Shown here in pieces: positions 51,859-56,050 of a stretch of 64,000 bases of DNA. A model generated the notes under the pieces. That model searched no databases. It saw nothing but the letters and a program-made list of their open reading frames with translations, and was not told where the DNA came from. Numbering within the stretch: the first letter of the stretch is position 1; every line of letters starts with the position of its first letter. The stretch comes from an archaeon (GTDB lineage Archaea > Nanobdellota > Nanobdellia > Pacearchaeales > GW2011-AR1): the NCBI GenBank assembly GCA_018694115.1, contig JABHNB010000005.1:69660-133659 (forward strand). The letters run 5' to 3'. A program made the position numbers and the translations under genes.

Positions 51859-52683
51859 TTATTGTTCTACACTATCTACATCATCCGAACCATCATTCAA
51901 CAAGTCTAATTCTCCTTCGATTTCCTGAAGCTCTTCAGGGTGTAAATTCAAGGTCATATGAATCTCATCAAAATGAACTGGCTGCCGAAGGAAAAGTTTT
52001 CCGTTATTTGACAGGTGTAAAACTGGAACAAATGATGCTAACTTCTCCTCTCTCGAAGGGGCAAGATGAGAATATTTCATATGGTCATTATCTGGATGAT
52101 CCACATGTACCTTAACTCTCGCAAAAATATTTTTAACCCGGGTTCTCAGTGGAACATGTGTTCCTTTAGGTAAAACAACTAAGATAGATTTCTCCGCTTG
52201 TCTGCCCTTGATCTCTCTCTTGATTCTTCGATTTTCGGTATCAATTGCCTTATTCAAAGCGCCCATCAATTCCTTAAGGGTCACTTTCCGGTGTCTTGCC
52301 ATTGGAGTTCGAGGAACAAGGATGGGTAGTTCATTCTCATCAATTTCTAATCTTTCAATTTCATATTTTCTTTCCTCTTTTCGACCATAAAGTGCATCAT
52401 CGAGACTCTGGATATAACTATTAACTAATATGTCCGACTTTAGTCTCAACAATAAGGAACAAGCAAGTAAGACTTTAGATGAGATAAAAAAATCTGCTTC
52501 CTCAAGTTGGCTAATCGCTTCGACATATTTATCTGCTAAAATTCCAATGTCAATATCCCAGGGATCCAATTGTTCAGTCTTAATTAAATCATAAATTAAA
52601 GCTTGCCATGAAAGCTCTTCACTGGTAATTAAATCAAAAAATTGAGATTGGTTTATTCTATCTACGTCCTCTTTTTCCCTCAT
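51859..52683 (-). CDS. scpA: Segregation and condensation protein A (kleisin)
   Basis: LDPWDIDI..LADKY, LLRLKSD, RKVTL.EL..AL, C-terminal winged helix F..VLHL...L.Q...F.EI. Confidence 0.88.
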   Translation of the reverse strand: MREKEDVDRINQSQFFDLITSEELSWQALIYDLIKTEQLDPWDIDIGILADKYVEAISQLEEADFFISSKVLLACSLLLRLKSDILVNSYIQSLDDALYGRKEERKYEIERLEIDENELPILVPRTPMARHRKVTLKELMGALNKAIDTENRRIKREIKGRQAEKSILVVLPKGTHVPLRTRVKNIFARVKVHVDHPDNDHMKYSHLAPSREEKLASFVPVLHLSNNGKLFLRQPVHFDEIHMTLNLHPEELQEIEGELDLLNDGSDDVDSVEQ

Positions 52684-52808
52684 GAAACATTTATATATGG
52701 CACTATTAATAAACATTTAGATGCCAAGTAGATAAAAAGAGATCCAGTTGGTGTCACTCGGCAATTACAACAGAACCGAAAGGTTTAAATAGTATTCCGC
52801 ATTAATTA

Positions 52809-53140
52809 TAATATCACCTCTTTTTCCCCAGGAGAGGGCAATAGGGCATCTTTTTGAACGCTTTATTGCCACTCCTAGGGTTTATATTATGTTTAATATT
52901 CGAGGCTGTATACCTCATATAAGACCTAAGCTGGATTACTTGTAATCTAAGGCATTGAAAACAAAACTGTGATATTAAACATGAATCCCCTTTTCTCCCC
53001 AGGGTTTCAAATTTCTTCAAAAAGAAAAGAGTTTATAATCCCAACAAAAAATCCATAATTCGTATAAGACCTACGATAACCAAATGAGGTTAAGGCAACG
53101 AACGGATTTATATTTTTTAAAAAATTTAATTTTTTTTTTT
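52809..53140 (+). ncRNA. Putative structured ncRNA made of two related units
   Basis: Own BRE/TATA at 52778-52791, multiple stems, repeated TATAAGACCTA-hairpin-TAAGGCA module, poly-T end. Confidence 0.5.
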
Positions 53141-53238
53141 GAAAAGAATCCCCACATTAATGTTGGGGGATGATTGCCCTGGGTATGTAAACACTTTAGA
53201 ATGGTAACGTTTATAAATAATAATAATGCCAGTTATTC

Positions 53239-53834
53239 ATGGGCAAGGTATTTTCAACGAGACAGCAGAAGTCATCTACATTAAGTATGTCAGGACTTCG
53301 GAAGAATAAGCCTCAGTATATAATTATACATTCTACAAGGAAACATCCGGAATTTGAAGATGTTCTTAATTGCCATAAGGAAAAGGAATGGGCTGGAATG
53401 GGCTATCACCTATTTTTATCTGATTCTGGAATATTGACTCAGGGAAGGCCATTTGAGTTAGAAGGGGCCCATGCCGTGGGTTTTAATACTAATTCTATCG
53501 GATTATGTATTTATTCTTCTAATGGTTCACTTAGTCCAAAAAAATAAGGTTAGGAAAAGAGGTAATCAGAGATTTACAAAAACAATTTGGGAATTTAGAA
53601 TTAATGCCCCACACACTTGCCCAGGTTATGTATAATAACCGATTATTAGAAGAAAGGGGATTAGACCCCCTGCCCGGAGATATTGGGGTTGCTCATGATG
53701 AGGAATTTTCAAGATTAAAGGAAGCGGCAGATAGTCTTGCTGGAAGATTAAATACTCAAGGTCACGAGGGACTAAAACTTTCGCTTAAAGCTCTTAAGAA
53801 TTGTCCTGGCGAGATATTTTATAGCCTTATTTAG
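53239..53834 (+). CDS. N-acetylmuramoyl-L-alanine amidase (Amidase_2/T7 lysozyme/PGRP type), frameshifted at A7 (53538-53544)
   Basis: IIIHST, W.GMGYH, GRP...GAHAVGFNTNSIGLC in frame 0; PH and KNCPG in the -1 frame. Confidence 0.85.
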
Positions 53835-53837
53835 AAG

Positions 53838-55034
53838 ATGGAAGAGAGATATATTGGGGTAGAAAATGAACTAATTTCCTTTAAGGATGGCACTGAAGTA
53901 GAATTCGGTGATTATTTTAAACAGTTAAAAGATTCAGTTGGAAAAACCCACGATATCTCTGGAACTTCAATTAGAACTGATACGGGGCATGGTTTTTATG
54001 TGGATGGCGATGAAATTGAAATATTAACTCCTCCTATTGCCCTTAACAGGGGATTTTCTAGTAGACTTACCGATTCTTTGATGGCTGGCAGGGATATTGT
54101 CCTTGAAGCAACCCCCGAATTAGAACATACCGGTTATTCTATGCACTGGAATTTATCCGATAATGACAATATTATGGGCAATAGGCTATACGAAGCTATT
54201 GCCATACCTTTTCAAATGTTTGGTCTAACGCCACTTTCCACGGGATTTAATTTGCGTCACAAGGATTATAGATTTGAAATATTGGGAGACTCCCTAACTC
54301 GGGAGAATCAGATTAATGCAACGGCCCTATTGCTTGGCGCGAGTCTTTGTGCTATGGAAGAAAGGAAGTATACTCCTCTGAGATTGGCAGATCGTAGTTT
54401 TTCCTCGGATGATGCGCAGGAGATATTTATTTCTGATGGGAGATATAGTTTTGTTGATGTGGATGTGCCAACTGCAGGCTTCCAAGGTAAAATGCAAGTG
54501 CAACAATATTTAGAATTATTTCACCGTTGGATAAGTCCCTTCGTTAGACGACTTGGAACAAGAAGGGAGGCCTGGAATCTGGAATCTTTTATATTTGGAA
54601 AAGAAAACTTGGAATTTGACGATTTAAAATATTTTGAATTAATAGAAGGGGGAGGGGGGGCAGTTGATGGCATTTATAAGCCGATTAGTTTAGCTAATTC
54701 TGAGAAGTCTAGACAGGTGTTGGTAAAAGGTGAGACTAAACGAGAACTTCCCTTAGAGTGCAGATTGCTTGGAGCAGTTGTTGGAGAATTAACCGACATA
54801 GAGGAGTTTGGATGGGATCATTTGTATTATTCTAGGGATTATGGGAAGACAAATGTGAGTGGAATTGGAGACATTTATCGGCATATGTCTTCCACCATTA
54901 AGGGCCTTCCAAGATTTAAACCCTCCCAAGATTTTCCTGAGGAAAAGCTAAAAGAAATTAGTGAAGTTGCCTTAAATGATGAAATAAAATATGAACCTGA
55001 TAAGGATTTATCGGCAGAATCAGTTCAAGGATGA
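53838..55034 (+). CDS. GS/GCS-fold carboxylate-amine ligase, PafA/Dop (Pup ligase)-like
   Basis: RYIGVENE, GHGFYVDGDEIEILTP, GYSMHWN, YRFEILGDS collinear with PafA RIMGIETE, GARLYLD..HPEYAT, SYGCHEN, YRRLHVIVGDS (recalled consensus). Confidence 0.65.
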   Translation: MEERYIGVENELISFKDGTEVEFGDYFKQLKDSVGKTHDISGTSIRTDTGHGFYVDGDEIEILTPPIALNRGFSSRLTDSLMAGRDIVLEATPELEHTGYSMHWNLSDNDNIMGNRLYEAIAIPFQMFGLTPLSTGFNLRHKDYRFEILGDSLTRENQINATALLLGASLCAMEERKYTPLRLADRSFSSDDAQEIFISDGRYSFVDVDVPTAGFQGKMQVQQYLELFHRWISPFVRRLGTRREAWNLESFIFGKENLEFDDLKYFELIEGGGGAVDGIYKPISLANSEKSRQVLVKGETKRELPLECRLLGAVVGELTDIEEFGWDHLYYSRDYGKTNVSGIGDIYRHMSSTIKGLPRFKPSQDFPEEKLKEISEVALNDEIKYEPDKDLSAESVQG

Positions 55035-55075
55035 TGCAGTGAAACATCCTAAAGGTACTGGAGAAGGTAATTAAA

Positions 55076-56050
55076 GTGATATCCTTAAGAAATAGAAAAC
55101 TGAAGAGAAGTTTAGAGGGCACAATTTCCAAGTTACATGGGGGGAGAGATTTTTCTGGAGAGATAAAGGTATCTGTTTATGATATTGAAAGCGGGGTTAA
55201 TGCTTCTGTTGGTGGAAATGATTCTGGTTGGGCAGCTTCTATAATTAAAGTTCCAATTATGATTTCTACCTTGCAAGAGATCGAAAAGGGAAGCCTGACG
55301 TCGAGGACAAAACTTGAAGTAAATCACGAATTTATGTTAGAACCCTGGAATTATGTTTCTAGACTTCCAGATAAATCTAAGATCGGGGTCAAGGAGTTGA
55401 TATACCGCATGATTGTTGCTTCAGATAATGAGGCAACAAATATCCTGGCTAACCATATTGGCATTGAGAGAATAAATAGGGATATGTGGGAGTTGGGGAT
55501 GGAAAATTCTATGTTGGGACACTTGCTCTGTCCAGGAGCCCAAAGATATACCTCTCCAATGAACCCAGACGGGAGTAATATTACTTGCCCTAATGATATG
55601 GTGAAGATTATGAGGCATATCTACGACGATTCATTTTCAAAATTGAATTCACGTGTTCGTGCTAATGCGGATAAATTTTTGGATATCTCTCCACCACATT
55701 TATTGGATACTGGGGAATTCAGGAATAGTTATATCAAAGCAAAAGCAGGATATATTAGTGATCCAAAAGATGGCGAAGATATACATGAGGTTGGAATTAT
55801 TGACGATCATCTGGTTGTCTGTGTTATGCTGAATAAAGTTAAGGATGCGTGGTTTTTCGATAGAGGATTATCGGATCGGGAAGGTGAGTCTCCCTGGGCT
55901 TTTCCAGTTTCTAAAGATGGCTATTTTCAACATGATGGTGATTATTTGATGGACCCTTCTTGTGTTCAGGGAACATTGAGTGGAATGAAACATCTCCCTG
56001 GGGGAGTTATCCATAGAAAAATTATGAATACTATCGCTAATAATATTTAA
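55076..56050 (+). CDS. Class A beta-lactamase/PBP-like serine hydrolase
   Basis: AASIIK (SxxK), SDNEATN (SDN), N.TCP.DM, KAG (KTG-like). Confidence 0.88.
   Translation: MISLRNRKLKRSLEGTISKLHGGRDFSGEIKVSVYDIESGVNASVGGNDSGWAASIIKVPIMISTLQEIEKGSLTSRTKLEVNHEFMLEPWNYVSRLPDKSKIGVKELIYRMIVASDNEATNILANHIGIERINRDMWELGMENSMLGHLLCPGAQRYTSPMNPDGSNITCPNDMVKIMRHIYDDSFSKLNSRVRANADKFLDISPPHLLDTGEFRNSYIKAKAGYISDPKDGEDIHEVGIIDDHLVVCVMLNKVKDAWFFDRGLSDREGESPWAFPVSKDGYFQHDGDYLMDPSCVQGTLSGMKHLPGGVIHRKIMNTIANNI

Follow-up and report, generated by a model that had tools for sequence, protein, structure and literature searches.

A candidate small non-coding RNA gene of Nanobdellia whose 5' end matches the 3' tail of 16S rRNA

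Bacterial trans-acting small RNAs (sRNAs) of the seed type, such as RybB and OmrA/B, carry a conserved seed at their 5' terminus, followed by a terminator hairpin and a U tail. The sponge RNAs CsrB and RsmY are built from repeated units of a motif and a hairpin in one transcript. Among archaeal sRNAs, sRNA41 and sRNA162 of Methanosarcina mazei are said to have been proposed to pair with Shine-Dalgarno (SD) regions. Here we describe an element found in a 64,000-nucleotide stretch of archaeal DNA (the window; positions 69660-133659 of contig JABHNB010000005.1, our C13) that belongs to the Nanobdellia assembly GCA_018694115.1 (our genome G000; 899 kb, 16 contigs, 82.7% complete). An earlier note on this DNA had pointed to an intergenic gap of more than 500 bp and had proposed that it holds an unannotated structured RNA; the gap and all the sequence features named there are present in the letters. 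Judging from the sequence, the gap very probably holds a genuine, transcribed and structured non-coding RNA (ncRNA) gene. The best explanation overall, which we favour by a modest degree, is a stand-alone small ncRNA gene that is spread class-wide and functions through its 5' strand.

The layout of this RNA resembles that of RybB and OmrA/B in that a stand-alone promoter is followed by a 5'-terminal single strand, which is the most conserved part, and then by a hairpin and a U run. By contrast with these sRNAs, it is archaeal, its presumptive seed is the same as the anti-SD tail of the organism itself and has been retained throughout a whole class, well beyond the range of typical sRNAs, the hairpin has a conserved C.A mismatch at its base, and the units can be doubled. 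The closest sequence likeness is to the 16S rRNA 3' tail (GGAUCACCUCCU), with which it shares the eight bases AUCACCUC, and in both a U-rich stretch follows (16S trailer CCUAUUUUU). However, the RNA is encoded by a separate gene on another contig, it places these bases before a hairpin and not after helix 45, and it is no known part of the ribosome. The M. mazei sRNAs reportedly do not extend beyond one genus or family and are directed at specific genes, in contrast to the class-wide RNA described here, and no relation to them was found by sequence or in Rfam. Like CsrB and RsmY, the RNA repeats motif-plus-hairpin units in one transcript in several lineages, but it has one or two units, and a 13-nt pyrimidine strand where the sponges present GGA in loops.

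The gap (52717-53238, 522 bp) has a G+C content of 0.31-0.36, the same as its flanks, and holds the RNA gene on the plus strand. What is universal in this gene is a core of about 55-80 nt consisting of one leader and one hairpin (Table 1), and the genome contains a single strong match to our covariance model (CM) of this core, R1. The leader begins with ATCACCTC, which the earlier note had equated with the archaeal 16S anti-SD; this identification was correct, since the sequence is that of the genome's own 16S tail, found on contig C4 and terminating in GGATCACCTCCT. A conserved and accessible seed, such as seed-type sRNAs possess, is discernible here: TATCACCTCTTTTTCCCCAGGAGA is invariant in 20 of 20 sequences of the genus, ACCUCUUUU is kept across the class, and positions 52813-52825 are unpaired in the minimum free energy (MFE) fold of this genome's RNA. 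The minimal forms of about 55 nt contain no cis sequence able to pair with the 5' strand.

The long hairpin drawn in the earlier note proved to be real. Its arms change compensatorily within the genus (GAGCGAT/ATCGCAT, GGGCAAT/ATTGCCA, TGACAAT/ATTGTCG). From alignment A1, in which 85 of the 87 distinct core sequences were aligned with MAFFT, RNAalifold predicted 14 pairs, 11 of them with changes on both sides; A77 is invariant in this alignment, and C29/A30 are at least 90% conserved. Alignment A3 comprises 90 homologous matches from 83 sources and was realigned by R1, so that it is fitted to the model and biased toward its structure, a bias from which the MAFFT-based result is free; in it 94.5% of 1067 hairpin cells pair, double-sided changes number 235 against 70.3 ± 6.6 in shuffles (reached in 0 of 500), the covariation score is 0.442 versus 0.140, and structures slid by 1-3 columns retain just 18-61% pairing. 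The 94 G.U cells on the plus strand of A3, together with the directional promoter, indicate that the RNA is on this strand. Overall hairpin length is about 20-50 nt, with indels of 1-2 nt inside the genus, and for this reason a coding frame was ruled out. Two U-rich tracts are found per unit. In this genome the 391-nt stretch 52800-53190 folds on the plus strand at -97.7 kcal/mol (z -4.17; 0 of 100 shuffles fold as well), and on the minus strand at -100.7 kcal/mol (z -3.74).

The promoter, with its B recognition element (BRE) and TATA box, is present as the earlier note had described it. From the first T of the TATA box to the A of AUCACC the distance is exactly 29 nt in 72 of 86 homologues, and 26-31 nt in 79; no TATA box was found by the search pattern in three of the 86 sequences. 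An own promoter and a defined 5' end, as in seed-type sRNAs, can thus be read from this spacing. The plus direction follows from the position of the purine-rich BRE, 5' of the TATA box. About 8 variable bases separate promoter and leader in the genus alignment. In the RNA-seq study of Nanoarchaeum equitans (PMC3491384), mapped starts were found 26-27 nt downstream of box A, and from this spacing and the position of the TATA box we infer a transcription start at 52810-52813, i.e., at or 1-3 nt before AUCACCUC/AUCACC.

At its other end, the gene is followed by T runs, and archaeal transcription ends at oligo-T. The earlier note had placed a poly-T run at 53129-53140; the run exists but consists of 11 T, and its start is one base off. 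In relatives, a T run directly follows the accessory unit described below. The accessible part of the N. equitans study also describes archaeal transcription termination at oligo-T (PMC3491384). In this genome the RNA is likely to measure about 300-330 nt and to end at T6 or T11. Just past T11 and before the amidase promoter there is a GC-rich hairpin, AUCCCC…GGGGAU (53148-53171), which is unconserved in the loci examined.

Homologues of the core are widespread. In a genome sample drawn from this phylum only, R1 matched 117 of 151 genomes, which belong without exception to the same class and represent 95 of 118 genera; it gave no match at E<=0.001 in the other 34, all of high quality. BLAST of 52790-53200 against 40 relatives returned the first approximately 95 nt in 19 of 24 same-genus genomes, with identities of 74-91%, and a shorter core match in other families of the order; after re-alignment, the conserved block was 52751-52885. 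All 15 loci from other families of the order (L028-L042) have promoter, leader and hairpin. Two weak secondary matches in same-genus genomes (L043 and L044, in G010 and G003) were discarded as false, being coding-like sequence. An exact-pattern scan of GTDB species genomes yielded at least 120 stretches, of which 80 were taken, and the element was present in 60 of these, under the labels Woesearchaeota, Pacearchaeota, Nanoarchaeota/Nanoarchaeia and "archaeon", with two labelled "Methanosarcinales" and one "Thermococci". The remaining 20 lack the hairpin and were rejected as chance matches (19 bacterial, one Methanoregula). A spread beyond the class, which three of these labels would suggest, is doubtful: the "Methanosarcinales" and "Thermococci" labels (L047, L076, L101) belong to metagenome-assembled genomes (MAGs), one of the "Methanosarcinales" records is G088, a member of the same class, and the labels of these RNA-carrying MAGs are probably wrong.

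In families other than that of this genome the RNA measures only 52-65 nt, and its loop is often of the UUCG type. In several lineages (L178-L185, L047, L192) a single promoter precedes two intact core units in tandem, and the 5' leader is longer; these leaders hold an ACUACU…AGUAG hairpin and a G-rich box (e.g., GGGGGUGG, GAGGUGGU) complementary to the seed. Some genomes have an extra copy at a second locus. In three genomes of family f38 (G084, G183, G138), a core variant of about 84 nt (L186-L188) begins at the stop codon of the upstream gene and has no promoter of its own. That gene is TrmB-like, as judged by eye from a helix-turn-helix-like sequence, and in L188 a 5S-rRNA-like sequence stands about 200 nt downstream of the variant.

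The gene context was compared in a synteny set of 86 loci with about 1-1.5 kb of flank each. ScpA was found in 71 loci: in 67 of them it stands upstream in divergent orientation, and in the other 4 it is a same-strand gene downstream of the RNA. For rpS27ae the total is 43, of which 38 are convergent downstream neighbours and 5 are same-strand genes upstream. The total for rpS24e is 25, and all-against-all clustering agreed with these counts. That homologues would lie beside scpA, as the earlier note had anticipated, is thus correct. Its placement of the RNA upstream of an amidase operon does not carry over to relatives: their downstream neighbour is rpS27ae, on the opposite strand, and the amidase ORF has a TATA-like box of its own about 25 nt before its ATG at 53239 (about 53211-53218). 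We therefore regard the association with an amidase operon as local and accidental. The fixed TATA distance and the usually opposite strand of the downstream neighbour are our reasons for considering the gene to be a stand-alone one.

In this genome the core is extended by about 230 nt, which contain a second-core remnant and two accessory hairpin domains (Table 1). The leader-like motifs near 52813 and 52985 and the two TATAAGACCTA...TAAGGCA units that the earlier note had paired with each other are all there. Our covariance model of the accessory domain, R2, matches copy 1 at 52903-52976 (57 bits, E 8.8e-10) and copy 2 at 53048-53119 (74 bits, E 4.5e-14), and these are the only two copies in the 899-kb genome. 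The covariation previously noticed in the unit stems was confirmed in alignment A2 (18 unit copies), where 91% of cells are paired, 10 of 13 pairs change on both sides and double-sided cells number 26 versus 6.2 in shuffles (0 of 500), and where slid controls give 21-52% pairing, a somewhat flattering comparison since the structure was drawn by eye from those same sequences. The domain was found by R2 in 21 of 41 genomes of the genus, no unit follows the core in two same-family genomes from other genera, and by these searches the domain is genus-specific. Similar remnants, or degenerate second units, occur in the genus relatives. A "tandem aptamer" of two units, as proposed earlier, is therefore not the general form of the RNA, since the universal element is a single leader and hairpin.

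Less could be retained of the 9-bp closing stem, TAATATCAC/GTGATATTA (52809-52817/52969-52977), that the earlier note had drawn around the long hairpin. The two arms are complementary, but the closing structure is absent from relatives, the MFE fold pairs 52972-52982 with 52889-52899 instead, and 0-4 of the nine bases of the 5' arm (52809 up to 52812) precede the predicted transcription start. The competing 11-bp helix was itself not seen in relatives. Two tertiary motifs were considered for the accessory unit and rejected. An 11-nt GAAA receptor requires UAUGG on the strand opposite CCUAAG; the unit has UAAGG, and its position 3 covaries U-A/C-G like a plain pair. A kink-turn (K-turn) was rejected as there are no tandem G.A positions.

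The sequence has no counterpart among the RNA families that we searched. A gathering-threshold scan of the whole window with Rfam 15 returned 4 tRNAs only (ARAGORN agrees), and a scan of 52600-53400 at E<=10 gave as its best hit, at E 1.4, a snoRNA-type match outside the element, so that the earlier statement that it matches no family stands. Among 12 long-leader homologous loci, a scan at E<=1 found just a chance-level RsmY match (18 bits, E 0.31). A divergent signal recognition particle (SRP) or RNase P RNA, either of which would have spoken against novelty, was not found here: neither Archaea_SRP (RF01857, a family with one copy per genome; at E<=10) nor RNaseP_arch (RF00373) matches the region, and both RNAs lie on other contigs, the SRP RNA at C9:1-230 (46.9 bits, cut by the contig end; gathering score 96.5) and the RNase P RNA at C14:25324-25593 (62.5 bits; gathering threshold 84). 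Both scores fall short of Rfam's gathering thresholds, so these two RNAs would be overlooked in this lineage by standard annotation. 5S rRNA (RF00001), a three-way junction whose 5' and 3' ends pair to close it, was rejected as well; the genome's 5S rRNA is at C7:49855-49967 (72.8 bits), and the closing stem here is unconserved. Box C/D guides carry a C box (RUGAUGA) and a D box (CUGA), and H/ACA guides a pseudouridylation pocket, a K-turn and an ACA box; A1-A3 contain no such boxes, no pocket and no conserved ACA, and both guide types were dismissed.

A literature search on archaeal small RNAs, the anti-SD and DPANN archaea, in which subscription journals were outside coverage, found nothing relevant by title or abstract; searches with the strings CACCUCUUUUU, CACCTCTTTTT, AUCACCUCUUU and ATCACCTCTTT gave only unrelated organisms among the matches listed, and no such RNA was among the matches listed for Woese- and Pacearchaeota ncRNAs. 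The accessible part of the N. equitans RNA-seq study mentions no similar RNA (PMC3491384). We treat the element as a new ncRNA family, absent from Rfam 15, whose general kind is known and whose class-wide, anti-SD-identical 5' end appears unusual.

How might such an RNA work? Granted that it is a real ncRNA, we consider it rather probable that it acts in trans through its 5' strand, pairing and protein decoy sharing that judgement about evenly. The hairpin would stabilise the RNA and the 5' strand would be the working part. Either the seed would pair with purine-rich SD-like sites (RRRRRGRGGUGRU), in competition with the identical 16S tail, or the 5' strand would mimic the 16S 3' tail or a U-rich site and titrate the protein bound to it. 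SD-like sites of the form AAAAGGAGGTGA-N3-7-ATG are present in the genome, and could pair with the leader using G.U pairs. In the long-leader lineages, single-sequence MFE folds predict that the upstream G/purine-rich box pairs with the seed of the first unit in 9 of 12 RNAs; among the 9 of those RNAs that have two units, the second seed is predicted to be unpaired in 6. These predictions hint at a built-in anti-seed that might control access to the seed. The anti-SD sRNA put forward in the earlier note is a possible reading of the sequence. Its strongest form, a class-wide "free-floating anti-SD" in which an abundant small RNA copies the 16S 3' tail at its 5' end, we put forward with much reserve and would sooner doubt than assume.

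A number of observations weigh against the explanation that we favour. The sequencing runs found to hold the stretch are 11 DNA runs (marine/seawater metagenomes) and no RNA run. In the pattern-scan loci, the columns ACCTCTTTTT, CCC and AGGGTT were preset by the search pattern, and their invariance is independent evidence only in BLAST- or CM-derived loci, where only small leader/core variants occur, e.g., AUUACCUC, AGUCACCUC, ACUCACCUCUUUU and AAUAACCUC. An extended target search of this 83%-complete genome found a sole other 13/13 seed complement, in the intergenic region at C8:31125. The motif GAGGTGAT is scarce, with just 25 occurrences in the whole genome. Several promoters are placed some 25 nt ahead of an ATG, a spacing suggestive of leaderless mRNAs, and many genes appear to be leaderless; given both, SD masking may touch few genes. 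Pairing of the leader with 16S, 5S, SRP and RNase P RNAs and 36 tRNAs was no better than that of shuffled sequences (-16.5 versus a shuffled mean of -17.3 kcal/mol), and since an invariant seed cannot covary, pairing is untestable by comparison. Some copies directly follow a stop codon and lack their own promoter, and the tandem units of other lineages seem to fit a protein-binding array equally as well as a seed RNA.

As to the site at C8:31125-31137 (AAAAAGAGGTGAT), a repeat-protein ORF and a further ORF converge on it from either side, two T7 runs come after it, and its opposite strand reads as a hairpin-less copy of the seed. A triple helix of the leader on the hairpin was also considered, and ruled out on strand polarity, by reasoning only.

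The strongest rival is a protein-binding or sponge RNA, in which each unit, made of the pyrimidine strand and the C.A-mismatch hairpin, binds an RNA-binding protein without pairing to mRNA. The partner might be an Sm-like protein, bound to the U5 tract, or else a KH-domain factor of small-subunit biogenesis whose normal ligand is the 16S 3' tail; Dim2/Pno1 of archaea binds GGAUCACCUCC, and Sm proteins bind oligo-U. The hairpin keeps its shape (CCC/GGG, the invariant A, the C.A mismatch) while its sequence varies freely, which fits protein binding, and the tandem units, the extra copies at second loci, the two U-rich tracts of each unit and the lack of a convincing RNA target in the genome complement search and the stable-RNA pairing all point the same way. 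On the other hand, the neighbours of the locus are ScpA, S27ae and S24e, with no linked gene that would encode such a protein, our sequence analysis identified no partner, and an invariance of 13-17 nt exceeds one KH or Sm contact. A sponge without mRNA pairing is, in our estimate, possible but doubtful.

The stand-alone RNA gene with a functional 5' strand has also to be weighed against a purely DNA-level element, i.e., a site of regulation or segregation in the region of the divergent scpA promoter, or a hairpin site of single-stranded DNA. The linkage to ScpA, mostly divergent, is in keeping with such a site, as is the conserved box between the two TATA boxes. Yet the G.U cells of the plus strand count against it, the conserved block begins at a fixed distance past a directional BRE/TATA, the invariant part is not palindromic, and copies also exist away from scpA, which together make a DNA-level element improbable. 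The box itself (Table 1) is, on sequence grounds, probably a shared promoter or regulator site of both divergent promoters, and related GTTAC/ACAACA boxes are found upstream of the BRE in other families. The two promoters stand back to back, with a predicted scpA TATA box at about 52732-52739 (minus strand) and that of the RNA at 52784-52791, some 45 nt apart, and the conserved box between them may be a shared regulator site.

A cis-regulatory leader of the amidase gene cluster, whether a riboswitch or a tandem aptamer, is less probable still. The RNA does lie upstream of the amidase ORF on the same strand and does contain two repeated units. However, relatives lack the amidase cluster at this position and have no conserved same-strand downstream gene (rpS27ae comes next, convergent in 38 of 86), T6, T11 and the TATA-like box intervene between RNA and ATG, the units are confined to about half of the genus (21 of 41 genomes), and no Rfam riboswitch matches. 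A ligand pocket, with invariant unpaired nucleotides enclosed by a fold of several helices, is also hard to accommodate in a universal core that consists of one hairpin and a 5' strand and whose minimal forms of about 55 nt have UUCG-type loops; the riboswitch was thus rejected both by context and by pocket. Least credible of all is a divergent known housekeeping RNA (SRP, RNase P, 5S or an rRNA fragment) or a hidden small protein gene. In its favour are the rRNA-like invariance, the size of about 300 nt in this genome, two minus-strand ORFs (35 and 68 aa) overlapping the region, and the result that a 23S rRNA was not found in this assembly, so that a 23S piece supplied in trans is conceivable. 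Against it, the SRP RNA, the RNase P RNA, the 5S rRNA and the 3' end of the 16S rRNA are all located elsewhere, the free variation of the hairpin and the doubling of units are unlike rRNA, neither ORF has a Pfam hit, and the 1-2 nt indels of the genus would break any frame.

As for the surroundings of the gene, the amidase match ends at profile position 83 of 131 and is followed by overlapping short ORFs, so the amidase gene may be frameshifted. It opens a block of cell-wall-type genes (53239-56050) that separates the RNA gene from rpS27ae/rpS24e and contains the partial Amidase_2, three ORFs (54, 76 and 398 aa) for which Pfam gave no hit, and a protein resembling Beta-lactamase2/Peptidase_S11. 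Since relatives carry little or nothing at that position, the block looks like an insertion.

Table 1. Features of the gap and its flanking genes (window coordinates; R1 and R2, covariance models of the core and of the accessory domain)
Feature	Position	Strand	Evidence
ScpA gene	51859-52716	minus	Pfam SMC_ScpA, E 2.6e-9
Box TGTCACT-N4-AATTACAACA-N-ACC	52751-52777	.	conserved in this genome (G000) and 19 same-genus loci
BRE/TATA promoter GAAAGGTTTAAATA	52778-52791	+	motif and fixed spacing in homologues
Core: leader, hairpin and GGGUUU	52810-52886	+	R1 match, 81.6 bits, E 1.6e-19
Single-stranded 5' segment AUCACCUCUUUUU	52813-52825	+	near-invariant; first 8 nt equal 16S 3' tail
Long hairpin with CCC/GGG closure, C.A mismatch C52829/A52877, U-rich apical loop	52826-52880	+	covariation
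5' arm of 11-bp helix, pairing with 52972-52982 and enclosing unit 1	52889-52899	+	MFE fold and complementarity; prediction
Accessory hairpin domain, copy 1: CUCAU/UUGAA stem, loop AUAAGA/CA, CCU/AGG, bulge, 8-bp apical stem	52914-52959	+	R2
GUGAUAUUA box, complementary to 52809-52817, overlapping 3' arm of 11-bp helix	52969-52977	+	sequence; unconserved in relatives of the genus
Second-core remnant AAUCCCCUUUUCUCCCCAGGGUUU, hairpin deleted	52982-53010	+	R1 with filters off: 11 bits, E 0.008, model positions 22-69 skipped
Accessory hairpin domain, copy 2: AAUCC/GGAUU, UUCGU/ACGAA, CCU/AGG, UAACC/GGUUA	53050-53108	+	R2; covariation with relatives
T6 (53113-53118), A6, T11 (53130-53140)	53113-53140	+	predicted transcript end
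Amidase_2 ORF (open reading frame)	53239-53547	plus	Pfam match spanning profile positions 2-83 of 131

Our findings show that no riboswitch for genes of cell-wall hydrolases lies at this locus, and they raise the question of why a second copy of the anti-SD tail should sit on a small hairpin RNA beside scpA and rpS27ae. The RNA is absent from current annotation and from Rfam 15, and a covariance model is now ready for annotating these MAGs. The RNA biology of DPANN archaea, whose genomes are tiny, has hardly been studied by experiment, and an ncRNA that is kept in about three quarters of the sampled class genomes, with a 5' end that is invariant in the manner of rRNA, probably has a central role. 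If the RNA does act as a free-floating anti-SD, it would tune the access of ribosomes to SD-led messages and shift the balance between SD-led and leaderless translation; alternatively, it would restrain the factors responsible for finishing the 3' end of 16S rRNA. The cis anti-seed boxes or second units of other lineages would then act as switches, and the RNA would be a global regulator that mimics the ribosome, of a kind undescribed in archaea in the literature searched.

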